NCBI GenBank assembly: GCA_947630285.1
Contig: CANRHD010000006.1
Location: 23,813-87,812 of the forward strand
DNA: 64,000 nucleotides
Source of the DNA: an uncultured Clostridia bacterium
GTDB taxonomy: Bacteria > Bacillota > Clostridia > Oscillospirales > Acutalibacteraceae
Reading direction: 5' to 3'
Shown here: positions 45,302 to 64,000 of the stretch, one piece after another
How the letters are laid out: the number at the start of each line of letters is the position of its first letter
How positions within the stretch are numbered: position 1 is the first letter of the stretch
Translations under genes and position numbers: made by a program
Notes under the pieces: generated by a model
Databases searched by the model: none
Told to the model about the DNA's origin: nothing
What the model saw: the letters and a program-made list of their open reading frames with translations, nothing else

Positions 45302-45303
45302 AA

Positions 45304-46410
45304 ATGAAAGAAGCAATTTACGAAATGAATAAAAAATTATTTAAAATTATCTCTGTTGTTTTATCAGTTACTTTATTATTTAGTATTATTTCATTTAATG
45401 CAGTAGCAATTGATACTAATACAACAGAATCTGAAGAATCTGAAACATCGCCATACCCCTTAGGGTGTCTTCCGGAATTGCCTGATGAAATTGAATTCCC
45501 CTCTTTTGGTAATGCTGGTGCACCCAATACAACAAAAACATCAGTTGATTTAACTTCTAAATTCCCAACCCCTGGGGAACAAGACGGATCAAGTTGTGTC
45601 GCATGGGCTATTTCCTATTTAGTTTCTGGAGAAGAATATATTAAACGAGGTTGGTCAAAGACAGAAAAATCTCATATGTTTAGCCCATATTTTATATATA
45701 ATTCACTTAACAAAGATGAAGATAAAGGGCTAAGGCTTTCAGAAGCTATGCAATTCTTAGGAAATTCAGGTATTTGTACGCTTAATTATTTTTCATGTAA
45801 AAGCGGCGACTATAAAACGGATCCTACAGGAATAGCAAAAGCTAACGCAGAATTATATAAACCTTTTAATGTATATTCTGTTAAAGGCGTTCAGGAAATG
45901 AAGAACGCAATTGCATCAAATCATGGTGTTGTTATTAGAGTTCGAGCTTACCCTGATTTGTATAATATCAGCTCCTCAAATCCTATATACGATAACACTT
46001 TAGGATTTGCACCCGGTAATCATGCAATTTGTCTTATTGGTTATGATGACAGTAAAAGTGCCTTTAAGTTTATAAACTCTTGGGGTACCGATTGGGGATT
46101 AGGCGGTTATGGCTGGATATCTTATAGATTAATAGACTCATCGCTGGCTAATATAATTGCACTAAAGGGCTATTGTATAAATTTACCTGAAAATGATGAT
46201 TATATTCTCGGCGATGTAAACGGTGACGGAAAAATAAGTATTGTAGACTCTAAATATGTTTTGCAATATGAAGCTCAAAGCAGAACTTTAACAGACAGAC
46301 AGTTTGCACTTGCAGATGTTAACGGCGACGCAAAGGTTTCAATCGCTGATTCAAAGAGCATTTTGAACTATATAGCCGGAAATATAACAAAGATGCCGTT
46401 ATATAATTAA
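45304..46410 (+). CDS. papain-like (C1) cysteine peptidase with a C-terminal dockerin
   Basis: Cys 'GSSCVAWAISY', His 'GNHAICLIGYDD' and Asn 'NSWGTDWGLGGYGWISY'. Dockerin 'GDVNGDGKISIVDSKYVL...ADVNGDAKVSIADSKSIL'. The signal peptide suggests the true start may be the ATG at 45325. Confidence 0.88.
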   Translation: MKEAIYEMNKKLFKIISVVLSVTLLFSIISFNAVAIDTNTTESEESETSPYPLGCLPELPDEIEFPSFGNAGAPNTTKTSVDLTSKFPTPGEQDGSSCVAWAISYLVSGEEYIKRGWSKTEKSHMFSPYFIYNSLNKDEDKGLRLSEAMQFLGNSGICTLNYFSCKSGDYKTDPTGIAKANAELYKPFNVYSVKGVQEMKNAIASNHGVVIRVRAYPDLYNISSSNPIYDNTLGFAPGNHAICLIGYDDSKSAFKFINSWGTDWGLGGYGWISYRLIDSSLANIIALKGYCINLPENDDYILGDVNGDGKISIVDSKYVLQYEAQSRTLTDRQFALADVNGDAKVSIADSKSILNYIAGNITKMPLYN

Positions 46411-49039: not shown

Positions 49040-50548
49040 GTGGCTGAAAAGAACAACGCCAACATCGGCTTTGAAAAACAAATTTGGGACGCAGCCTGCG
49101 TTCTTTGGGGACATATCCCGGCGGCAGAGTACAGAAAGGTTATCGTAGGGCTGATTTTCCTGCGTTACATATCCGGCGCCTTTGAAAAGCAATACAATAA
49201 GCTGAAAGCAGACGGCGACGGCTTTGAGAATGACAGGGACGCTTATCTTCAGGACAACATATTTTTCGTTCCCGAAAAAGCCCGTTGGAGTAAAATCGCT
49301 TCTTGTGCCCATACGAGGGAAATCGGTACTGTGATTGACGATGCAATGCGTGCGATTGAAGCCGAGAACAAGAGCTTAAAAAATGTGTTGCCAATGAACT
49401 ATGCAAGCCCCGACCTTGACGATCGTGTTTTAGGCGATGTGGTTGACCTTTTTACCAATATGGATATTGGCGGCGCAGAAGAAAGCAAGGATTTGCTCGG
49501 CAGAACCTATGAATACTGTATCAAGCAATTTGCGGCCTACGAGGGCGTAAAGGGCGGAGAATTTTATACGCCGTCAAGTATTGTCAATACGATTGTCGCC
49601 ATATTAAAACCGTTTGGAGGCTGCCGTGTTTACGATCCGTGCTGCGGTTCGGGCGGTATGTTTGTGCAGTCTGCCAAATTCATTAAAGATCATGCCGGCA
49701 ACAGATCCGATGACATATCAATTTACGGGCAGGAGAGCAACGCCGACACATGGAAAATGGCGAAGATGAATATGGCGATCCATGGTATTGAGCCCGATTT
49801 CGGACCATATCATGCGGACACCTTTTTCAACGACCTGCACCCCACCCTGAAAGCCGATTTCATTATGGCAAATCCGCCCTTCAATCTCTCTAACTGGGGC
49901 GGCGACAAGCTGAAAGACGACAAACGCTGGGCTTTCGGTACGCCGCCTGTCGGAAATGCCAACTATGCGTGGATTCAGCATATGATCCACCACCTCGCAC
50001 CAAACGGTAAAATCGGATTGGTACTTGCAAACGGCGCTCTTTCCTCACAGACGGGCGGCGAGGGCGAGATACGCAAAAATATCATTCAGGCCGACCTTGT
50101 GGAGGGCATAGTCGCTCTGCCTACGCAGTTATTTTACAGCGTGACCATTCCCGTTACCCTTTGGTTTATCTCGAAGAACAAGAAGCAGAAAGGCAAGACG
50201 CTCTTTATTGACGCCCGGAAAATGGGCCATATGGTTGACCGCAAGCACAGGGATTTTACCGATGAGGACATACAAAAACTTGCGGACACCTTTGAGCAGT
50301 TCCAAAACGGAACACTTGAAGATGTCAAAGGCTTCTGTGCCGTCGCCGACCTTGCCCAAATCGAAAAACAGGACTTCATTCTGACGCCGGGCAGATATGT
50401 CGGCATTGAGGAACAGGAGGATGACGGCGAGCCGTTCGGGGAAAAGATGACCCGTTTGACCGCCGAACTGTCCGAGATGTTCGCAAAGTCCCACGAATTG
50501 GAGGACGAAATACGAAAGAAACTGGGGGCGATTGGGTATGAAGTGTAA
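49040..50548 (+). CDS. hsdM: Type I restriction-modification methyltransferase subunit
   Basis: HsdM N-terminal domain ('LIFLRYIS'), SAM motif 'VYDPCCGSGGM' and catalytic 'ANPPFN'. GTG start after a GGAGG RBS. Confidence 0.93.
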   Translation: MAEKNNANIGFEKQIWDAACVLWGHIPAAEYRKVIVGLIFLRYISGAFEKQYNKLKADGDGFENDRDAYLQDNIFFVPEKARWSKIASCAHTREIGTVIDDAMRAIEAENKSLKNVLPMNYASPDLDDRVLGDVVDLFTNMDIGGAEESKDLLGRTYEYCIKQFAAYEGVKGGEFYTPSSIVNTIVAILKPFGGCRVYDPCCGSGGMFVQSAKFIKDHAGNRSDDISIYGQESNADTWKMAKMNMAIHGIEPDFGPYHADTFFNDLHPTLKADFIMANPPFNLSNWGGDKLKDDKRWAFGTPPVGNANYAWIQHMIHHLAPNGKIGLVLANGALSSQTGGEGEIRKNIIQADLVEGIVALPTQLFYSVTIPVTLWFISKNKKQKGKTLFIDARKMGHMVDRKHRDFTDEDIQKLADTFEQFQNGTLEDVKGFCAVADLAQIEKQDFILTPGRYVGIEEQEDDGEPFGEKMTRLTAELSEMFAKSHELEDEIRKKLGAIGYEV

Positions 50549-50936
50549 GATAGATACCAAAAATTTTGCTAAAAAAATTGGCTTTGAAAAAATTAATGAA
50601 TTTCCAGAACATTTTACGCCTACATTTGTTTTAGCAGTTGTTAACGGGCATAGCATAACAGTATCAGAAATGCTAAAACAAATTGAGTATGCAATTAGAT
50701 TTATTAAAGCAAATTTTGATGTTGATCAAAAGAAGTACAGCGAAACCCTTAAATTTCTTAAATTATGTGAGCTTAGATTTCAAAATCATTCATCAAGCAA
50801 ACCGAAAAAAAATATGTTGCATTTTGCGGTTGAAGTTTTTCACGAGATACAGGATATGCACGCCAAGGACGAGAAGACAAAAAAAGAAAATGAAAATATA
50901 TCTCTTTATTTGAATATATTAATTGATATGTTTTAA
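50532..50936 (+). CDS. orphan hypothetical protein embedded in the R-M locus
   Basis: 134-aa AT-rich ORF overlapping the hsdM end by 17 nt. No motif recognised. Confidence 0.4.
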   Translation: MGMKCKIDTKNFAKKIGFEKINEFPEHFTPTFVLAVVNGHSITVSEMLKQIEYAIRFIKANFDVDQKKYSETLKFLKLCELRFQNHSSSKPKKNMLHFAVEVFHEIQDMHAKDEKTKKENENISLYLNILIDMF

Positions 50937-50970
50937 ATGTAATATATTATCGTGTATATTATATTGATAC

Positions 50971-51255
50971 TTGAACGAAATTCCTGTCCCGTTTGTGCCG
51001 TTGAAAGTGCTGTACAACAGAATGACGATAGGCGGCATTGAAACTCGCCTGCGAGAAATGGGAAAACGCTTGGGCGTGTCAAAGGTGCGCCCACATAAAT
51101 TCAGACGAACCCTCGCCACTATGGCGATAGATAAGGGAATGCCAATCGAACAGCTTCAACAGCTCTTGGGGCATAAAAGAATAGATACAACCTTGCAGTA
51201 CGCAATGGTCAAACAGAGCAATGTAAAGCTTGCTCATAGGAAATATATCGGGTAG
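50971..51255 (+). pseudogene. C-terminal fragment of a tyrosine recombinase
   Basis: Only the last ~90 aa remain, with box II 'HKFRRTLAT...LLGHKRIDTTLQY'. The N-terminal core-binding and Arg-I regions are absent and there is no ATG start. Confidence 0.8.
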
Positions 51256-51269
51256 AAAGGAACACATTT

Positions 51270-52439
51270 ATGGCTGAGTGGAATTATTGCACAATAGGAG
51301 ATATATGCGATACAATCTCGGACACCTATAAAGGTGATGATAGCAAAGTTATTCTTGTGAACACCTCTGATGTATTAGACGGTAAAATTCTAAATCATCA
51401 GGAAGTAAAAAACGAGAACTTAAAAGGTCAATTCAAAAAGACTTTCCAATTTAATGATATTCTTTACTCGGAAATTCGACCGGCAAATAAAAGATTTGCC
51501 TTTGTTGACATTAACGATACGCATAAGTACATTGCGTCAACCAAGCTAATGGTCTTACGAGCAAGGAAAAACAAGGTAATTCCCAAGTTCCTATTTGCTA
51601 TATTAAAGTCTCCAAGCGTAATATCAGAACTTCAACACTTAGCCGAAACAAGGTCGGGAACATTTCCACAAATCACATTTGGAAGTGAGTTGGCTCCAAT
51701 GCCAGTAATGCTGCCTGATTTTGAAACACAAGAAAGAATTGTGGGTATTTTGAGGGCTATCGAAGAAAAGATGGAGGAAAATGAACAGATAAACAATAAT
51801 TTAGAGCAGCAAGCCAAAGCCTTGTTTAAGTCTTGGTTTGTTGACTTTGAGCCCTTTTCCGATGACGGAACAACGCCTGTGGATTGGCGAGTAGGTACTG
51901 TTGGAGAAATCATAGAACTCCACGACTCGAAACGTATTCCGTTATCGGGCGCTCAACGAGCGAAAATGGAAAAAACCTATCCGTATTACGGTGCTACCTC
52001 GCTGATGGACTATGTTGACAATTATCTTTTTGACGGCATTTACCTTCTTCTCGGTGAGGACGGAACCGTTATTGACGATAAAGGCTTTCCTATACTCCAA
52101 TATATAGACGGGAAGTTTTGGGTGAATAATCACGCCCACATTTTAACCGGCAAGCTTGGCTTTTCAGTTGAAGAACTGTATTTGTTTTTCAGCTTAACTA
52201 ACATTAAGTCAATCGTTACCGGCGCTGTTCAACAAAAAGTCAGTCAAGGCAATCTCAAAAGCATACCCACTGTTATTCCACCAAAAGAAGTGTTGAAGGA
52301 CTTTGATGAGTTAATTCAGCCCATATTTTCCGAAATTCGCACATTGAGAGCCGAGAATATACGGTTGGCAACCTTGCGTGATAGTCTTTTGCCTCGTCTT
52401 ATGTCCGGCGAGCTTGATGTCTCGAAAATTGACCTTTAA
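51270..52439 (+). CDS. hsdS: Type I R-M specificity subunit
   Basis: 389 aa with two target-recognition domains. These are separated by the central coiled-coil 'QERIVGILRAIEEKMEENEQINNNLEQQAKALFKSWF' and followed by the terminal conserved 'LATLRDSLLPRLMSGEL'. Confidence 0.9.
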   Translation: MAEWNYCTIGDICDTISDTYKGDDSKVILVNTSDVLDGKILNHQEVKNENLKGQFKKTFQFNDILYSEIRPANKRFAFVDINDTHKYIASTKLMVLRARKNKVIPKFLFAILKSPSVISELQHLAETRSGTFPQITFGSELAPMPVMLPDFETQERIVGILRAIEEKMEENEQINNNLEQQAKALFKSWFVDFEPFSDDGTTPVDWRVGTVGEIIELHDSKRIPLSGAQRAKMEKTYPYYGATSLMDYVDNYLFDGIYLLLGEDGTVIDDKGFPILQYIDGKFWVNNHAHILTGKLGFSVEELYLFFSLTNIKSIVTGAVQQKVSQGNLKSIPTVIPPKEVLKDFDELIQPIFSEIRTLRAENIRLATLRDSLLPRLMSGELDVSKIDL

Positions 52440-52473
52440 GCCGATAAATTATATATAGAGGGTGCTCTATTTC

Positions 52474-52836
52474 ATGGATTTCAAATACTTAGACAATGAA
52501 TCAGAACAAAAATTAAAAGAATTTTTAAGTTGCAATAATATTACTTATAATAAATTCAATGACCGAGTGATAGAAAATTTAATCAATTTAGGCTATTTAA
52601 AGGGTGAAGATATTTCTCCTATATCGGAATCACATACATGCTATGTTGTAATAGATATTACGCAAAAAGGTAAGTCTTATTTTGAAATGAAGAAAAGATA
52701 TGAAAAAGAGCAAAAAAGAATAACACACAAAGATTGGTGGATTGCTATAATAAGTGCTTTAATCGGCGCTTTAATCGGTCTAATACCTACTATTGCGCAT
52801 TGGATTGAAACGATATTTCAAAAAAATAATGATTAG
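52474..52836 (+). CDS. orphan small protein with a C-terminal TM anchor, embedded between hsdS and hsdR
   Basis: About 120 aa. Soluble N-domain followed by 'WWIAIISALIGALIGLIPTIAHWI'. Confidence 0.45.
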   Translation: MDFKYLDNESEQKLKEFLSCNNITYNKFNDRVIENLINLGYLKGEDISPISESHTCYVVIDITQKGKSYFEMKKRYEKEQKRITHKDWWIAIISALIGALIGLIPTIAHWIETIFQKNND

Positions 52837-52942
52837 TCATATATTGAATTATAAGCCGCCGCTAAATTATTGTTTAGCATAGACCGTCTACGGCAACGGT
52901 AAAACCATTTCAAATAGATAAGTCTCAAAAGGAGCAAATGAT

Positions 52943-55900
52943 ATGTCGGAATATTTCACCGAAGCAAATTACGAAAATTCTATAATCGAGCTGTTCAAAA
53001 ACAAATTGGGGTATGAATACATATACGCCCCCGATTTAGAGAGGGATTTTTACAGTCCGCTTTATGACGAGGTCTTGGCGGACTCTTTGCGGCGAATCAA
53101 CAAAGGACTGCCGAACGAAGCCCTGAACGACGCCCTGTTTAGGCTCAAAAATATTGAGAACGGCTCGCTTGTGCAGAAGAATGCCGTATTTACGGATTAT
53201 CTTCAAAACGGCATTCCCGTGCAATACTTTGCAGACGGCGAAGAACGCTCCTCTCTCGCCTATTTGGTCGATTACAAAAATCCCGACAATAACTCCTTTA
53301 TCATATCGAACCAATGGACTTTTATTGAGAACAGCAATAAACGAGCCGACATTGTCCTGTTTTTGAACGGGCTTCCCGTAGTGCTTATGGAGTTGAAATC
53401 TCCGTCCCGTGAGGGAACCGACGCTTCCGAAGCATATAGACAGCTTCGTAACTATATGCAGGAAATTCCGTCGATGTTCGTTTATAACGCCATCTGTGTG
53501 ATGAGCGATCTAATCACCTCGAAAGCAGGAACGATTACTTCAAGCGAAGATCGTTTTATGGAATGGAAAACCAAAGACGGCAGCTATGAAAACACGAAGT
53601 ACGCACAGTTTGACACTTTCTTTGAGGGTATGTTCCAAAAAGAAAGACTGCTTGATATAATCAAAAACTTCATATGCTTCTCGAACGAGGGAACGCAAAA
53701 AGCTAAAATTCTTGCCGGTTATCATCAGTATTTTGCCGTAAACAAGGCGGTTGCTTCTACAAAAAAGGCCACCGTAACAGACGGCAAGGGCGGAGTATTT
53801 TGGCATACACAGGGCAGCGGAAAGTCGCTGTCTATGGTGTTCTACGCCCACCGTTTGCAGGAAGCACTCGACAGCCCGACCATTGTGGTGCTGACCGACC
53901 GCAACGATTTGGACAATCAGCTTTTCGGACAGTTTGCAAAGTGCAAAGAATTCCTGCGCCAAGAGCCAATGCACGCCGAAAGCAGAGAACACCTGAAAAA
54001 CCTGCTTGCCGGCAGACAGGTAAACGGTATCATCTTTACCACCATGCAGAAATTCGAGGAACCCTCTGAGCCGCTGTCCGACCGCAGAAACATTATCGTA
54101 ATGGCGGACGAAGCGCACCGTGGGCAGTACGGGCTTGCCGAAAGCGTCGATGAGCAAACCGGCCATATGAAATACGGAATTGCACGCATTATCCGCAATA
54201 CCCTGCCAAACGCTACTTATATCGGATTTACAGGAACTCCGATTTCTTCCAAGGACCGCAGCACCCGTGAGGTGTTCGGTGACTACATTGATATTTACGA
54301 TATGACGCAGTCGGTAGAGGACGGAGCGACAAGACCTGTTTACTATGAGAGCCGTGTTATAAAGTTAAAGCTTGACGAACAGACGCTTAAGCTTATTGAT
54401 ACAGAATACGACATTATGGCGAACAATGCCGATCCCGAAGTGATTGAAAAAAGCAAGCGTGAGCTCGGACAGATGGAGGCCGTACTCGGAAACGACAATA
54501 CGATAAACTCCCTCGTCTGCGATATTCTCGACCACTACGAGAACAACCGTGAACACTTGCTGACCGGCAAAGCGATGATCGTTGCGTATTCAAGGCCTAT
54601 CGCAATGAAGATCTACAAGCGCATTTTGGAACTGCGCCCCACATGGACGGAAAAGGTGGGAGTGGTAATGACTTCCGGCAACAGCGACCCCGAAGAATGG
54701 CGGCAAATCATCGGCAACAAGCAACATAAAGACGAATTGGCAAAGAAGTTTAAAGATAATGACAGCCCGATGAAAATCGCCATAGTTGTGGATATGTGGC
54801 TGACCGGTTTTGATGTGCCGTCCCTTGCCACTATGTATGTGTACAAACCGATGGCAGGGCATAATCTGATGCAGGCTATCGCACGAGTCAACCGTGTTTA
54901 CGGGGATAAAGAGGGCGGCCTTATCGTAGATTATGTCGGAATTATCACGGCGCTGAAGCAGGCGATGAATGACTACACAAGCCGAGACAAGAAAAACTAC
55001 GGAGATACCGATATTACGAAGGCCGCCTATCCGAAGTTCCTTGAAAAGCTTTCTGTCTGCCGTGACTTGTTCTACGGATTCGATTACAGCGCCTTTTTGA
55101 CCGGCGCCGATTTTGAAAGATCCAAAACAATCAGCGGAGCAGTAAACTTTATCCTCGGCAGAGAAAAAAGCAAAGATAAAGACAGTTTTGTGAAAGAAGC
55201 TTTAATGCTTCATCAGGCGCTCTCCCTCTGCTCCTCTCTTGCGAACGAGGAGGAACGGTTTGAAGCGGCATTTTTTGAGGTAGTGCGTGTGCCTGTTCTG
55301 CGGTTGACAAATACCGGCATAGGCAAAAAGATTTCGCTACCGGAAATGAATGCAAGAATTAATGAACTGCTTAAACAAAGTATCAAGAGCGACGGCGTTA
55401 TCAATTTATTTAATGACATCAAATCGCCGTTTTCGCTGTTCAACTCAGAGTTTCTTAATGAAGTCGCCAATATGAAAGAGAAAAACCTCGCGGTAGAGCT
55501 GCTCAAAAAGCTGATTGCCGAACAGATTTCTGTCTATCGCAGGACGAATGCAGTCAGGTCCGAGAAATTCAGCGAGATTATGCAGCGTTCTCTTAATGCG
55601 TATCTCAACGGTATGCTCACCAACGAGGAAGTCATCGAAGAAATGCTGAAACTTGCAAAGCAAATTGCAGCAGCGCAAAAAGAGGGTGAGCAGTTGGGTC
55701 TTTCTGCCGATGAGCTGGCATTCTACGACGCTCTGACAAAACCGCAGGCAATAAAAGATTTCTATAACAATGAGGAACTGATTGCCATTACCAAAGAGCT
55801 TGCGGATACTCTGCGAAAGAACAAAACGATCGACTGGCAGAAGCGTGAGTCCGCAAGGGCAAAAATGCGCATGCTTATCAAGAAATTGCTTAAGAAGCAC

Positions 55901-55987
55901 AAGTATCCGCCTGAGGGTATGGAGGACGCAGTACAGACCGTTATGACACAGTGCGAGCTGTGGACGGATAATGTAATGGAAGTTTGA
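52943..55987 (+). CDS. hsdR: Type I restriction enzyme endonuclease/translocase subunit
   Basis: 1014 aa. N-terminal nuclease region 'ADIVLFLNGLPVVLMELK', helicase motif I 'HTQGSGKS' and motif II 'VMADEAHRGQ'. Confidence 0.93.
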   Translation: MSEYFTEANYENSIIELFKNKLGYEYIYAPDLERDFYSPLYDEVLADSLRRINKGLPNEALNDALFRLKNIENGSLVQKNAVFTDYLQNGIPVQYFADGEERSSLAYLVDYKNPDNNSFIISNQWTFIENSNKRADIVLFLNGLPVVLMELKSPSREGTDASEAYRQLRNYMQEIPSMFVYNAICVMSDLITSKAGTITSSEDRFMEWKTKDGSYENTKYAQFDTFFEGMFQKERLLDIIKNFICFSNEGTQKAKILAGYHQYFAVNKAVASTKKATVTDGKGGVFWHTQGSGKSLSMVFYAHRLQEALDSPTIVVLTDRNDLDNQLFGQFAKCKEFLRQEPMHAESREHLKNLLAGRQVNGIIFTTMQKFEEPSEPLSDRRNIIVMADEAHRGQYGLAESVDEQTGHMKYGIARIIRNTLPNATYIGFTGTPISSKDRSTREVFGDYIDIYDMTQSVEDGATRPVYYESRVIKLKLDEQTLKLIDTEYDIMANNADPEVIEKSKRELGQMEAVLGNDNTINSLVCDILDHYENNREHLLTGKAMIVAYSRPIAMKIYKRILELRPTWTEKVGVVMTSGNSDPEEWRQIIGNKQHKDELAKKFKDNDSPMKIAIVVDMWLTGFDVPSLATMYVYKPMAGHNLMQAIARVNRVYGDKEGGLIVDYVGIITALKQAMNDYTSRDKKNYGDTDITKAAYPKFLEKLSVCRDLFYGFDYSAFLTGADFERSKTISGAVNFILGREKSKDKDSFVKEALMLHQALSLCSSLANEEERFEAAFFEVVRVPVLRLTNTGIGKKISLPEMNARINELLKQSIKSDGVINLFNDIKSPFSLFNSEFLNEVANMKEKNLAVELLKKLIAEQISVYRRTNAVRSEKFSEIMQRSLNAYLNGMLTNEEVIEEMLKLAKQIAAAQKEGEQLGLSADELAFYDALTKPQAIKDFYNNEELIAITKELADTLRKNKTIDWQKRESARAKMRMLIKKLLKKHKYPPEGMEDAVQTVMTQCELWTDNVMEV

Positions 55988-56065: not shown

Positions 56066-57145
56066 TTATTGTGACGGTGTCAGTCCGCTTTCTTTTATAT
56101 ACGCCATTATTCTTGCGGTTTCTTCTTCGCCGTATTTTCTTGCTGCAACCTCAAGTGGCTGATCCTCATATTCATCAAATCCATATTTCAAAGCGCTTTT
56201 ATAATTCTTTTTATTATTCACAAGTTCCCTCAACTCCTTAAAATATGAGGTATTTAAAGCCGGGTCTTCCCAGTCAAGAGAATTTGCAAGATAATTAATA
56301 TACGAATGGTGTACTTCGTGACATATTGTGTTTATCACCTCTTCAACAGATGACTTTGCCAAATGTTCAACACTAATCGAAATTTGATTGGATTCATCAT
56401 CATAGCTGCCTAATGTTGCAAAGCCAATCATACCGGCCTTTATAGGTATGGCCGGAGTACCGAGAACACCGGCTTCAAAATCAACAAGCTTTTGCATAAC
56501 AGTTATTTTTTCTTGAACCGATAACCGATTCCATGTATTTTCTTGCAGATAACCCCATAGCTCCGTATTCTGCGTATAAAAATTCTCCGTCTCATCATCT
56601 GCTTGCTCTGATGCTTTATTCTCAGAGAACAGCTGATTATAAATTTTATCCGTAGCTTTATATATAGGGGACTTAAATCCATACATAAAAATTGAGATTA
56701 AACAAGGAATAGCGCACACAACGGCTATGCTGAGAACCGAACCTCTTCTAAATGCAAATTGGTATCTTCGATGTTGCTTTTTTGAAAACTTATGCTTTCG
56801 TTCGGATTTTCTTAAAGCACAAAAAAGTGCAGTTTCACAGCCCAACAAAATTAACATAATCAAGACGGACAAAACGAAATGCCACTGTGCGAATACGAGC
56901 ATAAACACAATTTCGACGGGAACTATGTTGAACAACAATTCTGTTATTGTACCGTTACAGGTCCCGTACCTTAAAGGAGAACAGCATAGCCATACCACCG
57001 TAACCATAATAATCAAAATTAGCGAGGACCATGTTCCCATATAAAGACCGATTTTCGGAATACAGAATGCAAACGGTTTGGCAAAACTATAGAATATCAT
57101 TATAAGGGGTATGATGATAGACGACTTGTAGATGATTCGTTTCAT
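56066..57145 (-). CDS. 5-TM membrane protein with a C-terminal HExxH (zincin-like) domain
   Basis: AGGAGG RBS before the ATG at 57145 ('MKRIIYKSS'). Five hydrophobic helices, then a soluble domain containing 'ICHEVHHSY'. Confidence 0.6.
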   Translation of the reverse strand: MKRIIYKSSIIIPLIMIFYSFAKPFAFCIPKIGLYMGTWSSLILIIMVTVVWLCCSPLRYGTCNGTITELLFNIVPVEIVFMLVFAQWHFVLSVLIMLILLGCETALFCALRKSERKHKFSKKQHRRYQFAFRRGSVLSIAVVCAIPCLISIFMYGFKSPIYKATDKIYNQLFSENKASEQADDETENFYTQNTELWGYLQENTWNRLSVQEKITVMQKLVDFEAGVLGTPAIPIKAGMIGFATLGSYDDESNQISISVEHLAKSSVEEVINTICHEVHHSYINYLANSLDWEDPALNTSYFKELRELVNNKKNYKSALKYGFDEYEDQPLEVAARKYGEEETARIMAYIKESGLTPSQ

Positions 57146-57223
57146 GCTGTTCCTCCTGATTTTCATATAAGCAATATATAGAATTTTGATTAAAAATGCT
57201 ATAAACCGACAGAAAACACATAT

Positions 57224-57793
57224 CTAACCGAGAATTCCGTCAATGATTCCATATTTCAAGGCTTCATCTGTATCCATCCAGAAATCGCGGTCGCAGTCGC
57301 GAGATATGGTTTGTATATTCTGACCGGTGTTTTCTGAAAGAATTCTGTGAAGCTTATTCTTGACTTTCGTTATGTGCTCAGCGGCAAGCTGAATATCTGA
57401 CGCTTGTCCTTGAGCTCCTCCAAACGGTTGATGAATCATAATTTCGCTCAAAGGGGTAGCGAACCGACTGCCTTTAGTGCCGCAGGACAGGATAAAAGCG
57501 CCCATGCTTGCAGCCATACCGGTACATATTGTGGATACATTACATTTGCAACGGTTAATGGCGTCAACAATTGCGAAACCAGCGCTTACGCAACCCCCGG
57601 GGCTGTTTATGTATATTTTGATGTCATCTGATCCATTGTTATCAAGATATTCTATCTGTGAGATAGTCTCCATAGCAACGGTATCGTTAATTTCGGAAAA
57701 AAGATATATTTTTCTGCTTTTTGTGAAATCATACGACAGAAGGTCTAAACCTTCTTTTCCTGATTTTGAAACGCTGATAACAGACGGTACCAT
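57224..57793 (-). CDS. stand-alone ClpP-family serine protease (accessory copy)
   Basis: 189 aa. 'INSPGGCVSAG', Ser 'GMAASMGAFIL', His 'IMIHQP' and 'DTDEALKYGIIDGI'. No tig/clpX neighbours. Confidence 0.8.
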   Translation of the reverse strand: MVPSVISVSKSGKEGLDLLSYDFTKSRKIYLFSEINDTVAMETISQIEYLDNNGSDDIKIYINSPGGCVSAGFAIVDAINRCKCNVSTICTGMAASMGAFILSCGTKGSRFATPLSEIMIHQPFGGAQGQASDIQLAAEHITKVKNKLHRILSENTGQNIQTISRDCDRDFWMDTDEALKYGIIDGILG

Positions 57794-59443
57794 TTAATTA
57801 TCCTCCTCATCTTCAAGTATGTCAAAAAGTTCATTAAATTTTTCCTCGAGCTCCTTGCGAATATCCTCATCCAATATTTCCTCCGAAGCCTTGTCTGACT
57901 TTTTTCTTTGGCTTTTTTTACGGGCAGCTTCTGTTTTTGACTTCAATTTACTTTGCGGACAAAATGGCTTGTTTGCTTTGCCTATTGAAACATCGCTCAT
58001 CAGATCGACGAAAGAATAAAAACATACCGGTGGGTGTGTCATATCCGGCAACTCGGCTTCTTCATAAGTACAGAAAGTCTCATACTTTTCAATGGAGGGT
58101 AGCGATGTGCAGTATCGTATGTCTGACGAAAGGTTCAAATAAATTGCTTCTTTTGAATACCAGTCTTTTCGCAGAGTCATAAGCTCCGGAACAGATATCA
58201 AAGGTTCCTCATGTCCGGACATCGTTATTTCCGTTGTTCCGCAGCGCCGGCTTATTTCTTCCAGCAATTCAAGTTCCGTAGAGCCCAGAAAAAGTGTTGT
58301 TGTGCAGTTTGTCATCATATTCTTATAATTAGGATAGCGTTTTTTTAAAAGATCAATAGATTGACAGCACAGATAGTATCTGATGTTTCTGCTTCTGTGT
58401 GTTGCAAGCGCTGTGGCTATATCAGGTATGGGAAACGAGCAAAACTCATCTAAGACAAAATTTACTCTGGTGCTGAGTTTTCCTCCCTTTGAATGGAAAG
58501 CTTTTTCAACTAATAAATTTTGAATTTGGGAAATAAGTGTTCCTATAATCGGATCGCATACTGTACTTGAATCATCGGTTATTACATAAATAGCCGTTTT
58601 TTCTTCCGAAAGTTCATCTAATTCAAATGTACTGTGACTAAGCATTCGGGCAAGATGATCGTTTTGAATAAATTTTTGAATAAAACTGGAACATGTGCTT
58701 AAAGTTGACATTAGCGTTTTTTCCGGCTCGGAGAGTACGGTTCGCAGATTCTGCATTGCCGCATTTGCAAGTTCCGACTCCTGATTAACATACTCGTTCA
58801 AATACCCTGCCGTGCGATTTGTGTAATAATCGGCCAGACTGATAAAATTAACGGCATCCGGATTGGGATATGATGAATACATAATAGGGAGTATTCCATT
58901 GTTTGCGGCCATAGCAGTGTTTGGCCAAAACACATCGACCTTGCTGTTTTCAAATTGCTCCTGTGCCAACGCTGCTACAAGATTACTGGACACAGATGTT
59001 GCTTTATCTATTTCTCCGGATCTATACAATTTTGTTGGATAAGATAACGGGTTATATCCTTCTCCGTTATAATCTCTGAAATTCAATACACGAATTTTAT
59101 ACCCCAAATGCTTCAAATAGTTTGCGGTTCGAGCGTACAATTCCCCTTTTGGATCGGTGATAAACATGTTTTCGCCGGCCTTAGCCAAGGTGCATATCAA
59201 CGGCATAAACACACATATACTCTTTTTAAATCCGCTGGCGCCATAAACAATACAATGCGAATCGGAAGCATCAACAAGAGCTTTTTTACCGTCAGATACG
59301 ATTGGAAGACCTCCTTTGCTGAGTGGGCTATCATCCAAGTAGTTTACAGAAACCAGATTTTCCCTTATGTTTTCGTCTGACGACCAATTAGTTTTAGGAT
59401 TTGGATGCGTGTACGCTCGATATATTGCTTCATAACTCTTCAT
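57794..59443 (-). CDS. soluble TraG/VirD4 (type IV coupling protein)-like ATPase
   Basis: 'ITDPKGELY', 'NFVLDEFCSFPIP...LATHRSRNIRYYLCCQSIDLLKKRY' (TraG-D_C-like) and the atypical P-loop 'GASGFKKS'. No N-terminal TM helices. Charged C-terminal tail. Confidence 0.7.
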   Translation of the reverse strand: MKSYEAIYRAYTHPNPKTNWSSDENIRENLVSVNYLDDSPLSKGGLPIVSDGKKALVDASDSHCIVYGASGFKKSICVFMPLICTLAKAGENMFITDPKGELYARTANYLKHLGYKIRVLNFRDYNGEGYNPLSYPTKLYRSGEIDKATSVSSNLVAALAQEQFENSKVDVFWPNTAMAANNGILPIMYSSYPNPDAVNFISLADYYTNRTAGYLNEYVNQESELANAAMQNLRTVLSEPEKTLMSTLSTCSSFIQKFIQNDHLARMLSHSTFELDELSEEKTAIYVITDDSSTVCDPIIGTLISQIQNLLVEKAFHSKGGKLSTRVNFVLDEFCSFPIPDIATALATHRSRNIRYYLCCQSIDLLKKRYPNYKNMMTNCTTTLFLGSTELELLEEISRRCGTTEITMSGHEEPLISVPELMTLRKDWYSKEAIYLNLSSDIRYCTSLPSIEKYETFCTYEEAELPDMTHPPVCFYSFVDLMSDVSIGKANKPFCPQSKLKSKTEAARKKSQRKKSDKASEEILDEDIRKELEEKFNELFDILEDEEDN

Positions 59444-60198
59444 AGTGTAATCTCCTCTTTGCTGATTCGCTGTATTTTTTCCATGTCTTTTTCTGAGATC
59501 AAGTCAAAACAGAAACCGTCCGGGTTTTTAAAATATTTTGCCATCATTTCAGGACGAACAGTTATATGCGTACCAAAAAATGATTTCAAATCATTCTCTA
59601 TAGCAATAACGGTTCTCTTTGTCTTTATTGCATTTTGGGGAATAAAACGGCGAAACAAATTTTCCGTTTGTGTGAGAAAATGAATGTCATGTTTTTCACG
59701 CAAATCTTCAAAGAAACACTTGTATAAATCACATTCGGCAAATGATGCCTTATCAAGTCTTTTAACTTTAAAATACCTTAGTAATACCTCTATTTCGTCT
59801 TCAGTCAATTTGTTTCCGGGCGAGATAAAAATATATTTCCAAATATCTGACATATCGCTCAAAAAAGGCAGGGTAATATCGGAAAATAACTCCTCTGTAA
59901 GGTGTCCTTTCCATTCAGTAATATCAATCACTATATATCCTCTGTATTCATCTTTAAACCGAATATTGCTTCTTGCCGTTTCCTGAAACCGTTTTAATTC
60001 GTGAAAACGATTCTGCTCATACGGAAGACAATACCTGAAAATAAATTTGAAATACAAGCACTCACCGTTAAAGCTGTCCGGTGAAATGCGAAAGGCCTCA
60101 GAACAAATTTGCTCAATTTGATCGTCCAAACTCTCCTCGTCATCTGATAAAAGAATAAAATTCTGTGGAAAAAATTTATTTTTGTAAAATATCGACAT
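59440..60198 (-). CDS. hypothetical protein, first gene of the operon
   Basis: AAAGGAG RBS 5 nt before the ATG at 60198 ('MSIFYKNKFF'). Its stop overlaps the next ATG (ATGA). The ORF-track extension to 60426 would contain the predicted promoter. Confidence 0.55.
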   Translation of the reverse strand: MSIFYKNKFFPQNFILLSDDEESLDDQIEQICSEAFRISPDSFNGECLYFKFIFRYCLPYEQNRFHELKRFQETARSNIRFKDEYRGYIVIDITEWKGHLTEELFSDITLPFLSDMSDIWKYIFISPGNKLTEDEIEVLLRYFKVKRLDKASFAECDLYKCFFEDLREKHDIHFLTQTENLFRRFIPQNAIKTKRTVIAIENDLKSFFGTHITVRPEMMAKYFKNPDGFCFDLISEKDMEKIQRISKEEITL

Positions 60199-60327
60199 AA
60201 TGACTCCTTTCAAAGCATTGTCAACTGATATGTTTCCGTTTTGTTTTATTATGTATAAGCTAAACGGTATCTGCAAAATTTTCTGGAATTTGTTTGTTGC
60301 ATAGACCGTCCTATATTTCTTGATTAA

Positions 60328-60357
60328 ATTATAGTACCTAATTAATCCAGCAAGCAA
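60328..60357 (-). promoter_or_regulatory. candidate promoter of the four-gene operon
   Basis: Minus strand reads TTGCTT, 18-nt spacer, TATAAT. Confidence 0.4.
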
Positions 60358-60579
60358 CTTACTGTTTTTCCAATAAGGTAACATAATCACCCATTTTTTG
60401 TAATCTATATCCAATATTACTAACAAAGAACTTTAGATTTTTTCGCATGGCATATTATAAAGCAGAAAATATTCCTTTTATAGTTTACGGCAAAAGCCAA
60501 TTAGGCATTATTTATTAGTATTGCAATCCAATAAATTATAAATCATAAAAAATATCCGTATTAATTTTTCCAATATATA

Positions 60580-60608
60580 TTGACGGAAGTTCCTATATTG
60601 AATATAAT
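60580..60608 (+). promoter_or_regulatory. candidate promoter of the 1036-aa gene
   Basis: TTGACG, 17-nt spacer, TATAAT, 50 nt upstream of the ATG at 60658. Confidence 0.5.
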
Positions 60609-60657
60609 TATAGTCAAGATTTGCATTAGTCTTTAATAGAGTATAGGAGTGATTTAT

Positions 60658-63600
60658 ATGACGGAAAATTATAGAATGATTAATACAAGTTATGGGGAAA
60701 AATCAAATATAGGAATAAGAAAAAATGTCTCATTAAGCTCAGTTTCGGAAAAGATATTGGTTCACGAAAATATTGCAAAGGCAAAAAGCGGAAAATATAA
60801 TTGCTTTGCTGTCTCTTACCTTTTTGATGACCTTTTTTGCGGAAATGAATACACAAAATTTTTTAGTAAGAAACCACTTATTAAATTAGATGATAGTCCC
60901 TGTGGACATAAAGGAATTCTTTCTTTCATTTTTCCTGACGAAATACTCAAAACAATTAAAGAAAAGGACGATAAACTTAAGCTAACCAAAGAAAAGAAGA
61001 ATACCGCCATTAAAGAAGATCACTATGCCCATTTCCTACAGCTTAAGTATAACGACAATATAATCACAAACTTTATATACGAGGTTTATGCGAAATTAGG
61101 TTGGAAAAAATTTATTAACTTAATACAATGTCACATTGCCGACCAATTAGCCGAAAAAAACTTATGTATTAACCAGGATTTGATTGAATACCTTTCTATC
61201 GTTGGCAATGAAACAATAGTTCCCTATGATACATCGCCTAAATCAAATGAAGAGTTTTTACATTTAATTGAAAAAGGTAAGAATGGCGATAATCAAGCGT
61301 TAATTTTAGTTATTTCCAATTTTTTTATTTCAAGCATTCTTGGACTTAGATCTTTGAATTTTCCCAGTGATACCGGTAAGGGCAAAAAGCCTTCGTTCAA
61401 GACCTATCTGCTCAGTTGTACAGGTATGGAGTGTATTTGGAAACCCGATTTGATCTCACCCCCTTATGAGCGTTTGTTTGATTCTCGAAGACTGTTTGAA
61501 AACGCAAACTACAGGAGTGCAATTAAAACTATTGAGGAGTGGCTTAATGAATACGAACAAGTAGCGTCAAACGAGGCTAAAGCTCTCGCATACCAGATTC
61601 TTGGCTTTTCTCTTTATAATTTAACTTCATCAGATGACAAGGAATTAAATAGCTGTCAATCAAAAGGAACACAATACCTTAAAAAATGTATTGACACAGG
61701 TAAAGCAGATCTGTCTGTTTATTACTCTTTGTATGATTATCTAAAAGAAAGTCTAATGGAAGAGGCTACTGAATATTTAAAAACAGCTTTTGCACATAAC
61801 TATGCAAAAGCTGTTATTGAGGTTGCATTCTTATATTTAAACGATGCGTGTATATTTGACGAGATCACCGAGGAATTGCTTCTTAAAAAAATCAATTACA
61901 TAATTGAAAATGAAAGAAAAAATGATATAGTTGATGTCGGAAAATGCCTTTATTTACGTGGACAGTTTGAAAAAAAATACGGCAATGAATCAAATGCTAA
62001 CCGTGACTTTGAATCGGCCGTAAAAAAAGGAAACGAAAGAGCAAGACAGGAAATCAGCCGTAAGAAGCGTAATGAAAGAAATTCTTTTCCTAAATTTATC
62101 AATAATAAAAATGCGCCGTGTTGTTATTCAAATACCTTTACCGACAACAACTACACTGTAGCTTCTACATTTCCAAGCGGAACTTGGTCAATGTACACGC
62201 CCGACAAAACGGATAAAGAAGGCGTAAATGAAATTTCAGGTATAGAAGAATTTATTGATTTGCAGTGCAAATCTGGATTTAATCATTCAAGATTTGTTTT
62301 CCTTTTTATGAGTCAAGATGAAGATAAGAATTTGAATGAGTGTTTGATTCTGCTGGATAAGTTATTTAACTTTGTTCTAAGCAAATCGGAAGAAGTAAGA
62401 TGGAAAATTATTGATTTGATTGACATTTTTGTAAGCGCAAAATACGAAACGGCATCTATGCTGATTGACGCAAATATCAGTGATATGGGAGATGACATCT
62501 ACTTTAAAGTGCACATCACTGATGCGAACAGAGATACCGTCCATAAACTTCTTTGTGATGTTCCGCTTTTCACGCCGGCATTGAGCGGATTAAAAAAAGA
62601 AAAGTTCACGAAAGTCGTTCTCTTCGGGGATTCGGAAATTAACTATAGCTTCATAAAGGAAAGTGTTGCGTGTGCCTATTTGGGAGAAAAGCATCCCATA
62701 GATATAACTTTGATGGGAGAGAATGCTGAAGTTCTTGAAAACAGATTCCGTCAGGAGTGCCCGGGCATATACAAAGATACTCCTCATATTTCTTGCATAA
62801 TGCCGCAATTCATAAGGTGTAATGTCAAGGAAGCGGACTTTCCGAATTTAATTTACGGTAAAATTCATGACCATATTCTTGATGAAAAAAAAGAACATTC
62901 TATCGATGCAGAAGCAGTTAATGCGCTGCTTGAAGCAAATTACTTTGTCGTAGATTACTCGGATGATCTTGAAAACATTAAATTTGCCTCTGAACTAAGG
63001 ACATGGCTGCTCAGAAGCAGAGGGACATTCGATCGTGCCCCATTTATAGCTGTAAAATGCTCTGATGAACAAAACTCATACCTTGCAAGACATTTAACTC
63101 TTTCAGGACAGGCAGCCGGCAGTTCATACTTCAATAAATATGACTTGTTTCCGATTGGTATCTCTGCACAGACTTATTCGTACAAAAACATTATCGAGAA
63201 TCCGGTATTGAATGAATTTGCTCTTCGCATACATAAGTCGTATTATGATGGCAACGAGAGAAAAGCAGAAAACGATTTTTACAGCTATTCCTACAATTCT
63301 GATTCCTCGCTTTCAACCGCAATTGGATTGTGTTACCGCTTCTTTTCTGCAGGTATAGCATTTAAGGAAAAAGATAGCTATTTGAACTTTAGGTTTTTCA
63401 ACACGCCAAATATCGGTTCCAAATTTGAGGAAGAATATCGGGAAAAGCTTGAGGATTTGGCCGCTTTGGAGCAATCAAGATGGAATGGGTTTATGTTGAG
63501 TCGGGGATGGGAATCAGCAAGCAAAAGCGAAGTACAGGCTTATAAAGAACAATCAACCGGTTTAGCACACAAACACATTCTTGCAAAAAAGCACCCGTTT

Positions 63601-63768
63601 ATCAGAGAATGGGACGCTCTTGATACTTCCAAATTATCTGATTTGTTAGGCATATTGAAATCGAAATTTAATTATGACCGTCAGCCGCAGGTTACAACCA
63701 AGAAAAGTATTGAGGATACATCAAAATTCTTTAGAACAAAATCTAAGGAAAAGGAAAAAATACATTAA
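60658..63768 (+). CDS. large (1036-aa) hypothetical protein: unknown N-domain, Sel1/TPR-like repeats, degenerate Rossmann-like modules, C-terminal RW...GW module
   Basis: AGGAG RBS 8 nt before the ATG at 60658. Sel1-like 'YAKAVIEVAFLYLN' and 'FESAVKKGNERARQEI'. 'KVVLFGDSEINY' and C-terminal 'LEQSRWNGFMLSRGWE...KKHPFIREWDAL'. Confidence 0.6.
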   Translation: MTENYRMINTSYGEKSNIGIRKNVSLSSVSEKILVHENIAKAKSGKYNCFAVSYLFDDLFCGNEYTKFFSKKPLIKLDDSPCGHKGILSFIFPDEILKTIKEKDDKLKLTKEKKNTAIKEDHYAHFLQLKYNDNIITNFIYEVYAKLGWKKFINLIQCHIADQLAEKNLCINQDLIEYLSIVGNETIVPYDTSPKSNEEFLHLIEKGKNGDNQALILVISNFFISSILGLRSLNFPSDTGKGKKPSFKTYLLSCTGMECIWKPDLISPPYERLFDSRRLFENANYRSAIKTIEEWLNEYEQVASNEAKALAYQILGFSLYNLTSSDDKELNSCQSKGTQYLKKCIDTGKADLSVYYSLYDYLKESLMEEATEYLKTAFAHNYAKAVIEVAFLYLNDACIFDEITEELLLKKINYIIENERKNDIVDVGKCLYLRGQFEKKYGNESNANRDFESAVKKGNERARQEISRKKRNERNSFPKFINNKNAPCCYSNTFTDNNYTVASTFPSGTWSMYTPDKTDKEGVNEISGIEEFIDLQCKSGFNHSRFVFLFMSQDEDKNLNECLILLDKLFNFVLSKSEEVRWKIIDLIDIFVSAKYETASMLIDANISDMGDDIYFKVHITDANRDTVHKLLCDVPLFTPALSGLKKEKFTKVVLFGDSEINYSFIKESVACAYLGEKHPIDITLMGENAEVLENRFRQECPGIYKDTPHISCIMPQFIRCNVKEADFPNLIYGKIHDHILDEKKEHSIDAEAVNALLEANYFVVDYSDDLENIKFASELRTWLLRSRGTFDRAPFIAVKCSDEQNSYLARHLTLSGQAAGSSYFNKYDLFPIGISAQTYSYKNIIENPVLNEFALRIHKSYYDGNERKAENDFYSYSYNSDSSLSTAIGLCYRFFSAGIAFKEKDSYLNFRFFNTPNIGSKFEEEYREKLEDLAALEQSRWNGFMLSRGWESASKSEVQAYKEQSTGLAHKHILAKKHPFIREWDALDTSKLSDLLGILKSKFNYDRQPQVTTKKSIEDTSKFFRTKSKEKEKIH

Positions 63769-63773
63769 TAAAT

Positions 63774-64000
63774 TGAACTGCTCCAAACTGTACGGACAGC
63801 ACAAAAGCCCCCTGTGGTAGGGAATATTAAGATTTAAGCAATGAACTGACTTCGCAATTCAAGTGGGGTCAGTTTTGTTTTGAATTGAATACGCTGATGG
63901 TTGTAAAAATAGATGTACTCATCAATGAGGAGGCAAGCCTCCTCATAGGTTTGGAGTTTAACTCGATAAATACACTCTGTTTTGAGAATAGAAAAGAAAT
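63774..64000 (-). mobile_element. IS3-family insertion sequence, truncated by the window edge
   Basis: The terminal repeat begins TGAACTGCTCC at 63774. It contains the 3' end of a transposase gene. Confidence 0.75.
63834..64000 (-). CDS. IS3-family transposase (OrfB/integrase), C-terminal 55 aa only
   Basis: The minus-strand translation ends '...KTECIYRVKLQTYEEACLLIDEYIYFYNHQRIQFKTKLTPLELRSQFIA*', which is the typical rve-integrase C-terminus. Confidence 0.8.
   Translation of the reverse strand, partial: FFSILKTECIYRVKLQTYEEACLLIDEYIYFYNHQRIQFKTKLTPLELRSQFIA

Follow-up and report, generated by a model that had tools for sequence, protein, structure and literature searches.

A large Sel1/TPR protein with a distant RyR-type domain in TIR-associated islands of gut Clostridia

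Introduction

The window analysed here is a stretch of 64,000 nucleotides from an uncultured Clostridia bacterium of the Acutalibacteraceae (contig CANRHD010000006.1, positions 23,813 to 87,812). Near its right-hand end lies a gene for a protein of 1036 aa that belongs to no curated family: Pfam, NCBIfam and PADLOC searches with the whole protein and with four sub-segments, each as a single sequence, returned nothing significant, and no PADLOC-DB v2 model matched the protein or its four operon neighbours. The locus raises the question of what so large a protein does and with which genes it works. Bacteria, plants and animals all use TIR-made ADP-ribose nucleotides as immune signals, and few proteins are known to read them. 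The RyR domain, named after the ryanodine receptor, was tied to TIR signals in 2026, only as a phage-encoded degrader or sponge (PMC13232231; bioRxiv 10.64898/2026.06.04.730250). Here we describe the gene, its fold assignments, the conservation and covariation of its residues and the conserved neighbourhood of its homologues, and we propose, tentatively, that the protein reads the signal, or serves as an adaptor, in a Thoeris-like, TIR-based conflict island of gut Clostridia. The best reading of the evidence casts it as a non-catalytic receptor or adaptor for a signal of the ADP-ribose (ADPR) type in a Thoeris-like multi-gene system.

A distant RyR-type domain at the C terminus

A previous sequence-only reading of the window had noted a resemblance between the C terminus of the protein and bacterial RyR-type ligand-binding domains, and this resemblance is supported as distant homology. 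When a profile of the C-terminal helical domain was compared with 177,635 PDB sequences (E<=10), five matches were obtained and all five were RyR-domain proteins (E 0.003-0.33), the best being a RyR1 repeat chimera (E 0.003), with the bacterial "putative ryanodine receptor" entries 3NRT, 4N05 and 6UAG at E of about 0.1. With the close-family profile A1 the PDB search gave 0 matches, and the deeper alignments A2 and A4 were needed. One relative of 31 matched PF02026 at 4.7e-5, and comparison by hhalign with the small RyR proteins of neighbouring loci gave P 2.6e-4 over 76 columns, other set-ups giving P 0.004-0.012. The register of the RyR alignment was identical in every comparison. Because several concordant tests agree, each individually modest, the C-terminal domain is moderately supported as a distant, insertion-bearing relative of the RyR domain (PF02026). 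The domain (aa 836-1030) is all-helical with high confidence in the AlphaFold2 (AF2) model, and in a tandem-repeat comparison its first half matched its second half and RyR through its first helix only.

Family, distribution and gene neighbourhood

A word-indexed search recovered 49 full-length clusters of relatives at 43-99% identity, none of them named and none with a Pfam domain, and an exhaustive profile search of 1.84 billion representatives (E<=1e-3) extended the family to at least 522 clusters at 50% identity. Conservation is concentrated in a core of ~450 C-terminal residues, and the N-termini vary across the family. All organism labels are of gut or rumen Clostridia (Ruminococcus albus, Lachnospiraceae and metagenome-assembled genomes), the source name, where given, is "hypothetical protein", and the window's own sequence was found in rabbit-gut metagenomes. 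No RNA run was found to carry the gene.

More than 40 loci, designated here by L numbers, were mapped with seed hidden Markov models (HMMs); the tighter subgroup alignment A8 served for locus scanning, alignments A3 and A7 being too diverse. TIR genes lie within 10 kb of the homologue in about 20 of the 26 distinct loci that have enough flanking DNA. The common layout consists of a divergent envelope/ATPase set upstream, the gene itself, and a convergent set of Card1-type and TIR genes downstream. The upstream set comprises a SprT-like gene, small genes of no assigned function, a protein with four transmembrane (TM) helices, an OmpA lipoprotein, a short and/or a long ATPase resembling type IV coupling proteins (T4CP), and ClpP, often together with a GH-E toxin and Imm33. 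Downstream are found a Card1-type PD-(D/E)xK protein of ~1000 aa that lacks a CARF domain and one to five TIR genes whose products include STAND, LRR, TPR or kinase modules as fusions, often with NUDIX, inositol-phosphatase-like or small RyR genes; NADAR also recurs nearby. This layout persists in the metagenome-derived branch that carries His and Asp at two pocket positions (the H/D branch, see below), which has only about 20-25% identity to the window protein, and in 13 of 14 H/D-branch loci the Card1-type gene is the immediate downstream neighbour.

Two loci bear directly on the association with TIR. Locus L019 is an allele of the window locus that is free of the insertion sequence (IS) element ending the window: it holds a 99%-identical copy of the protein and the same four divergent genes, and it is identical to the window through the stop codon. 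After the stop codon, L019 continues with a hairpin terminator and two convergent TIR genes, encoding a TIR-Sel1/TPR protein (984 aa) and a TIR-AAA/LRR protein (960 aa). The IS end stands in the window where L019 has, at 7736-7790, a perfect bidirectional hairpin terminator (GCAAACGGATCAAA...TTTGATCCGTTTGC-TTTTT), and no recognisable terminator follows the large gene in the window after the IS insertion (63769-64000). The terminator and the convergent TIR genes have been replaced or displaced in the window by the IS element. In L027 (6684-12751), a two-gene operon consists of a ThsB-like TIR protein fused to a beta-propeller-like region (1082 aa), the stop codon of which lies 2 nt before the ATG of a 949-aa homologue. 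No other island genes are present there, and its flanks carry unrelated genes, for a C-type lectin protein and a zinc-ribbon protein.

The Card1-type proteins (e.g., L017 13414-16407, L020 13149-16130 and L028 12839-16042) carry the nuclease domain at their C terminus; no CARF domain was found in them, and their ~700-860 N-terminal residues have no detectable relatives. Downstream of the family's genes, no other neighbour is as constant. Card1-type nucleases normally respond to a nucleotide second messenger, which activates them by way of the CARF domain. Because this normal switch is absent here, the CARF-less nuclease would make an attractive client of the window protein.

The upstream operon has the look of an envelope module (L014 5059-8901, with equivalents in L001, L017, L020 and L028-L039). 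It encodes a lipoprotein (LAGC lipobox) whose OmpA peptidoglycan-binding domain is weakly similar to ZorB/MotB, a 4-TM protein that has a coiled-coil tail, and three soluble proteins of no assigned function. The GH-E (HNH/EndoVII-type) toxin and Imm33 occur in the same operon (L014 3167-4221, L004 3338-4377, L020 3547-4583), just upstream of the short T4CP-like ATPase, which has a canonical Walker A motif and a PADLOC "mad8" match. Among the partners at homologous loci, PADLOC gave clear matches only for the TIR proteins, the Card1-like nuclease domain and this short T4CP (mad8), and weak ones for the OmpA-like protein (ZorB) and for g255 (LmuB), both at E of about 0.002. In L024 (5494-6762), a NADAR-DarT1/SprT-like fusion of 422 aa and a PHP-domain protein are convergent to a homologue of 28% identity, a link to ADP-ribose chemistry. 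A literature search found no description of a ClpP/VirD4/TIR/SprT or Card1/TIR/ClpP gene combination.

The sequence-only reading had offered two roles for the protein, an independent single-gene system or a sensor or regulator partner of the neighbouring operon. The first finds no support: in the loci the gene is almost never alone, and no effector domain could be recognised in the protein. The second has some support: throughout the family, down to 20-25% identity, T4CP-like and ClpP genes stand within 10 kb of the homologue. The TIR and Card1-type genes immediately downstream are the closer partners and the more informative ones. Comparison across genomes, which that reading had proposed, places the homologues near both groups of genes, in defence or mobile-element islands, and no housekeeping family matches the protein. 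A stricter form of the second role would make the protein a TIR-independent sensor or regulator of the T4CP-like/ClpP/SprT operon, reading ATP, ADP or NAD through its RCK- and RyR-like domains. This we judge quite unlikely. It would account for the divergent arrangement with a common spacer in the window and L019 and for the recurrence of the long T4CP and ClpP in a distant H/D branch (L025, L029, L031), and both RCK domains and animal RyR Repeat12 bind ATP or ADP. However, T4CP and ClpP are absent within 10 kb in L010, L023, L024, L027 and L033, and in most loci they stand 5-9 kb away with other genes between, while TIR and Card1-like genes accompany the homologues more closely and more constantly; GxGxxG, moreover, is missing from the alpha/beta region.

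MobL relaxase, T4CP and primase genes adjoin some of the loci, and part of the family is therefore carried on integrative mobilisable or conjugative elements.

Pocket residues and their covariation

The RyR-type positions were followed through 246 family members aligned by hmmalign to the helical-domain HMM. In the EQSRW motif (Table 1), E938 and R941 are invariant (246/246) and W942 is present in 240; by alignment W942 takes the position of the adenine-stacking Trp of phage RyR proteins, and Q939 replaces H75 of RyDEP and H129 of RyR-Tad. In the second motif, H979 (243 of 246) aligns with their phosphate-binding His (RyDEP H100, RyR-Tad H154). An upstream block specific to the family is more than 95% conserved at H859, Y862, Y879, N880, S883, S884 and Y893. 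The RyR ligand motifs of the window protein read QxxW, GW, KKHPFIREWDAL and T-K, in which the Trp, GW and HP are kept while the first His and the Asp are replaced.

The phage protein RyDEP is a glycosidase that opens 2'cADPR and 3'cADPR, isomers of cyclic ADPR (cADPR), with H75 and D117 as its catalytic residues, W78 contacting the adenine and H100 the phosphates; of the homologues that keep these residues, most act as sponges without catalysis (PMC13232231). RyR-Tad acts as a sponge that takes up gcADPR and cADPR and binds through H129/W132, K147/H154 and K170/D171 (bioRxiv 10.64898/2026.06.04.730250). The pocket positions of the family coincide with the residues mapped by experiment in RyDEP (H75, W78, H100, D117) and in RyR-Tad (H129/W132, H154, D171), position 1014 being a candidate for the D of the D-R motif and for the RyDEP Asp.

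Positions 939 and 1014 covary. Position 939 is H in 100 members and Q in 144, and position 1014 is D in 61 and T in 158; the combinations are H/D in 60, Q/T in 138, H/T in 19 and Q/D in none. When redundancy was reduced to 136 representatives, H/D was both the most frequent state and the most diverse (60), followed by Q/T (33) and H/T (16), and His939 was found in 96 (71%). Because H/D is commonest and most diverse and the H/T members are closer to the Q/T clade, the H/D state looks ancestral, with D apparently lost first and then H. The window protein lacks the His/Asp dyad of RyDEP and has Q939 and T1014 instead. As Gln and Thr replace the catalytic residues, the window clade should bind its ligand and not hydrolyse it.

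Small stand-alone RyR proteins (PF02026; 5,213 clusters in the database) are found in the same islands, in L014 (21266-21553), L005 (21301-21618), L022 (6985-7269) and L007 (7140-7424). They have Thr in place of the phosphate-binding His of "HP" (KKETPCLVPY), unlike RyDEP and RyR-Tad.

The pocket could also belong to a regulator that quenches the signal, either as a sponge for TIR-made nucleotides or, in H/D relatives, as a hydrolase, and so sets the threshold of the system or resets it. Ring nucleases are a comparable off-switch in type III CRISPR systems, and RyDEP and RyR-Tad play a comparable part for the phage. In favour of such a role, all RyR-domain proteins whose biochemistry is known act as sponges or glycosidases of cADPR isomers, the canonical H/D state is the most frequent and most diverse one among the representatives (60 of 136), and the stand-alone RyR proteins of the islands suggest host-side control of the signal. 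We nevertheless consider it unlikely: a four-domain protein of 1036 aa with a Sel1 scaffold is elaborate for a buffer, the window clade has neither dyad residue, the small island proteins could already do the buffering, and in L027 the homologue is the sole partner of the TIR protein, which is the place of an effector or receptor.

A related idea, that the protein is an anti-defence factor with which a conjugative or mobilisable element neutralises the Thoeris signals of its recipient on entry, appears very improbable. It takes its appeal from the anti-Thoeris function of the RyR domains characterised so far and from the location of some loci on elements with a MobL relaxase. However, the gene is embedded among defence-type genes (TIR-STAND, Card1-type nuclease, restriction-modification), its product is very large for such a protein, and in the window it is chromosomal, next to galT. 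Relatives are also absent from viral contigs, none having been found in two scans of 2.9 million contigs.

The conservation of the pocket bears as well on whether a ligand is bound at all. The protein could instead be a structural or scaffold component of mobile-element cargo that binds no nucleotide, its neighbourhood reflecting shared descent of the backbone of an integrative conjugative or mobilisable element. The MobL relaxase, T4CP and primase genes beside some loci, the low-GC region flanked by an IS element and a restriction-modification system, the modest fold TM-scores and the weak RyR statistics would all suit that explanation. It is decidedly unlikely, however, as the order of the genes survives at 20-25% protein identity amid varying cargo, the two-gene TIR operon of L027 lies outside any such backbone, and the invariance of pocket-type residues over 246 members and the covariation of 939 and 1014 point to a conserved small-molecule site.

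Proposed role and its weighing

The preferred reading remains that of a receptor or adaptor for a TIR-made signal, and we infer its ligand, the direction of signalling and the partner contacts as follows. The neighbouring TIR proteins, with their sensor modules (STAND/NB-ARC, LRR, TPR, beta-propeller, kinase), would on activation convert NAD+ to an ADP-ribose-derived nucleotide. The C-terminal RyR-type pocket would bind this nucleotide, with W942 stacking on the adenine, H979 and K977 binding the phosphates, and the invariant E938 and R941 predicted to contribute. The helical domain is modelled as packing rigidly against the RCK-like alpha/beta region. Binding could change the conformation or oligomeric state of the protein, upon which the Sel1 solenoid and the N-domain might engage effectors: the Card1-type nuclease, the T4CP-like ATPase with ClpP, and the envelope module.

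Several points weigh against this proposal. The RyR tests are each weak to moderate, the C-terminal 187 aa of the window protein do not match PF02026 even at E 10, and the RyR-like domain has two insertions, of ~15 and ~18 residues, relative to canonical RyR domains. The nucleotide pocket is predicted from the alignment and not from model coordinates, and position 1014 was equated with the RyDEP Asp by similarity of motifs, over a stretch rich in indels. Among the neighbouring TIR proteins are many NLR-like fusions, and TIR in such fusions is often an NAD-depleting effector and not a producer of signal. No effector domain is recognisable in the window protein or in distant members whose N-termini are longer. 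The window itself shows none of the TIR partners, owing to the IS element and the window edge, and no TIR gene is present in the available DNA of L009, L012, L020/21, L023, L024 and L033/34/39. Finally, the synteny could partly reflect an inherited mobile-element backbone.

A broader version of the proposal, which we hold to be speculative and on present evidence improbable, places the protein at a hub where arrays of TIR-NLR-like sensors converge, by way of an ADPR-derived messenger, on one RyR-/RCK-type receptor that releases several effectors. The effectors released would be the CARF-less Card1-type nuclease, the soluble T4CP-like ATPase with ClpP, and the lipoprotein/4-TM envelope module. 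Were this so, the island would be a bacterial counterpart of the plant arrangement TIR-NLR to EDS1 to helper, and the RyR Repeat12 fold would be an ancient host-side receptor of the cADPR type and not only a phage counter-measure.

If the receptor reading is correct, the protein would be the first candidate host-side receptor of RyR type, found in a large and widespread family of gut and rumen Clostridia, and Thoeris-like systems would gain a new class of effector or receptor. The protein could explain how the CARF-less Card1-type nuclease and the ClpP/T4CP-like module are controlled, and the natural switch of the pocket from H/D to Q/T would provide ready-made variants that separate binding from catalysis. 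Being abundant in the gut microbiomes of humans and animals, the family bears on phage-host dynamics there.

Other domains of the protein

The order of domains proposed by the sequence-only reading (an N-domain of ~280 aa with no assignment, Sel1/TPR repeats at aa ~300-480, and two Rossmann-like beta-alpha modules) is recovered, as is the lack of a P-loop. Neither Walker A nor GxGxxG was found in a motif scan of the 1036-aa protein, and a search for membrane segments gave none that was convincing. The N-domain (aa 1-294) has no meaningful match in Pfam or, including by an N-domain profile, in the PDB, and no detectable relatives; its residues 50-290 are confidently helical in the AF2 model (pLDDT 80-94). 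Within it, the helix at aa 212-230 (61291-61347) is strongly conserved and hydrophobic (family consensus IIANFFIS..LGLR) with a borderline transmembrane-like score, and could be a buried core helix or a membrane-associating element.

In the Sel1/TPR region the window protein alone gave only sub-threshold DUF2225 and TPR_15 matches. The family profile matched Sel1/TPR structures in the PDB (best E 3.5e-28), Pfam Sel1 matched 17 of 51 diverse family members (best 2e-15), and Foldseek likewise recovered TPR/Sel1.

Residues 500-1036 form one compact module in an AF2 model built on a 76-sequence alignment (pLDDT 92.2, pTM 0.93). The segments that had been taken for two Rossmann-like modules are both beta-strands of its alpha/beta region (KVVLFG at 651-656 and YFVV at 762-765), in which N558, D604, D622, Y762, D770, R781 and Y828 are conserved. 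The best Foldseek matches of this region were the RCK domains of the TrkA gating ring, MthK, BK/Slo and CASTOR, all with prob 1.0 and with E of only 7e-3 and TM 0.32-0.38; the tandem alignment to TrkA spans 409 columns. Pfam TrkA_N matched one of 51 members, at 0.0085. Because of the E and TM values and the missing glycine-rich loop, "RCK-like" is used here as a description of the modelled fold, with no claim of membership. A housekeeping role in RCK-controlled K+ uptake was discarded on context and on the missing GxGxxG, no K+ channel or transporter gene being found near the homologues in more than 40 loci. The model of the whole protein is mediocre (pLDDT 70), and its Foldseek matches are dominated by the TPR part. 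With SPINDLY and OGT as top matches it suggested a TPR protein with a GT-B glycosyltransferase; this candidate was rejected when the C-terminal module alone (pLDDT 92) matched RCK and not GT41. A fold search of a viral structure library returned nothing.

The gene and its surroundings in the window

The open reading frame on the + strand is intact from 60649 (GTG) or 60658 (ATG) to the stop codon at 63768 and gives 1036 aa from the ATG, which is preceded at 9 nt by AGGAG, read from the sequence. The protein is 99% identical to the full-length metagenomic protein P0001. Position 60580, given earlier as the start of the feature, is the -35 box of a near-consensus promoter; the site is a consensus match only, and such sites are no commoner in the AT-rich spacer than in shuffled sequence. 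Two distances given in the sequence-only reading needed correction. The divergent region, put at ~460 bp, measures 231-273 bp, depending on whether the upstream gene starts at TTG 60426 or at ATG 60384 (the latter as in L019, 314 aa), and the gap between the stop codon, ending at 63768, and the IS end (TGAACTG...), beginning at 63774, is 5 bp and not 6 bp.

Table 1. Positions, strands and assignments of the features described in the window
Feature	Position	Strand	Remarks
Divergent gene 4	56066..57166	-	5 predicted TM helices and C-terminal SprT-like zincin (HEVHH)
Divergent gene 3	57224..57793	-	ClpP-family protease, 189 aa; start abuts T4CP stop codon
Divergent gene 2	57794..59443	-	Soluble VirD4/T4CP-like ATPase, 549 aa; non-canonical Walker A (GASGFKKS)
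Divergent gene 1	59440..60426	-	314-328 aa, function unassigned; relatives beside long T4CP genes elsewhere
Promoter-like site of large gene	60580..60608	+	TTGACG-17-TATAAT, 11/12 consensus matches
Ribosome-binding site AGGAG and ATG start	60644..60660	+	Sequence read; gene call in L019 also 1036 aa
Large gene (BIG), coding sequence	60658..63768	+	1036 aa, soluble, without P-loop
N-terminal domain, aa 1-294	60658..61539	+	Mostly helical, small beta-hairpin; conserved in only part of the family
Sel1/TPR-type alpha-solenoid, aa 295-475	61540..62082	+	PDB profile, Pfam, Foldseek
Linker and short beta segment, aa 476-544	62083..62289	+	Conserved C489, N492, P506, W510
Rossmann-type alpha/beta region, aa 545-835	62290..63162	+	Closest to tandem RCK/KTN (TrkA-N-like) domains, without GxGxxG
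C-terminal helical domain, aa 836-1030	63163..63747	+	Second half a divergent RyR-type (PF02026-like) domain, putatively nucleotide-binding
Motif EQSRW, aa 938-942	63469..63483	+	Equivalent of RyR "HxxW"
Motif KKHPFIREW, aa 977-985	63586..63612	+	Equivalent of RyR "K.HP.lvpY"
IS3-family-like element end	63774..64000	-	Transposase C-terminus, ...YNHQRIQFKTKLTPLELRSQFIA and stop

Up to ~48.7 kb the window is ordinary chromosome (Obg, LepA, HemN, GalT and dockerin proteins), followed by a type I restriction-modification system and then by a low-GC block with the four divergent genes, the large gene and, last, the IS end. A cellulosome-bearing host of Ruminococcaceae type is indicated by two dockerin-domain proteins at 44684-46410, one of which has a papain-like peptidase domain. 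In the restriction-modification system (49040-55987; hsdM, hsdS, hsdR), a low-GC open reading frame of 134 aa and a C-terminal fragment of a tyrosine recombinase (50971-51255) lie between hsdM and hsdS and may be the remnant of an hsdS shufflon. Among the divergent genes, the one for the T4CP-like ATPase, a protein with no TM helix, overlaps at its start with the stop of the 314-328-aa gene and at its other end adjoins the ClpP start. The soluble ATPase, its non-canonical Walker A motif and the overlapping or abutting gene ends suggest that 57224-60426 is a translationally coupled ATPase-ClpP module and not a conjugation coupling protein.

Comparison with known systems

Among known systems, the phage proteins RyDEP and RyR-Tad share with the family the motifs [H/Q]xxW, GW, K.HP...[W/Y]..L and, in the majority of relatives, D-R. 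The Trp mapped as stacking on adenine and the His mapped as binding phosphate are kept in the family, and a genomic link to TIR signalling is common to the phage proteins and the family. RyDEP and RyR-Tad are phage-encoded anti-defence homodimers of ~100-180 aa, whereas the window protein has 1036 aa in four domains and is cellular or borne on an integrative conjugative element, inside an island of defence type. Its RyR-like domain differs further in the two insertions and in an additional conserved N-terminal half (IHxxY...YNxDSS...YR), and the window clade has Q and T at the H and D ligand or catalytic positions. Kinship to Repeat12 of the animal ryanodine receptor is likewise distant in sequence; Repeat12 is also a helical module that binds adenine nucleotides, but it is part of a Ca2+ channel of about 5000 aa.

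RCK/KTN domains (TrkA, MthK, BK/Slo), the best structural matches of the alpha/beta region, are ligand-controlled oligomerisation modules. The window region departs from them in its TM of 0.32-0.38, in the absence of GxGxxG and of a nearby K+ channel or transporter, and in its different conserved polar residues.

Thoeris effectors (ThsA with SIR2-SLOG, ThsC-ThsL) resemble the window protein in having ThsB-like TIR genes adjoining, and one relative of the window protein forms a two-gene operon of TIR and partner. The combination of a predicted ligand-binding module with a TPR-type solenoid recalls the TPR-containing ThsI. Unlike these effectors, the window protein carries neither a known Thoeris sensor domain (such as SLOG or Macro) nor a killing domain that could be recognised, and where Thoeris is a two-gene operon, the island described here is large and multi-gene with many TIR paralogues. 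A survey of 29 Thoeris effector types makes no mention in its text of RyR, RCK, Rossmann, ClpP, TraG or VirD4 (Yirmiya et al. 2025 preprint).

The Card1/Can2 CARF nucleases of type III CRISPR systems carry the same PD-(D/E)xK domain as the island partner, which differs in that it lacks CARF and has only ~700-860 aa of other sequence. By analogy with these enzymes, nucleotide sensing for the CARF-less nuclease may be supplied in trans, possibly by the window protein.

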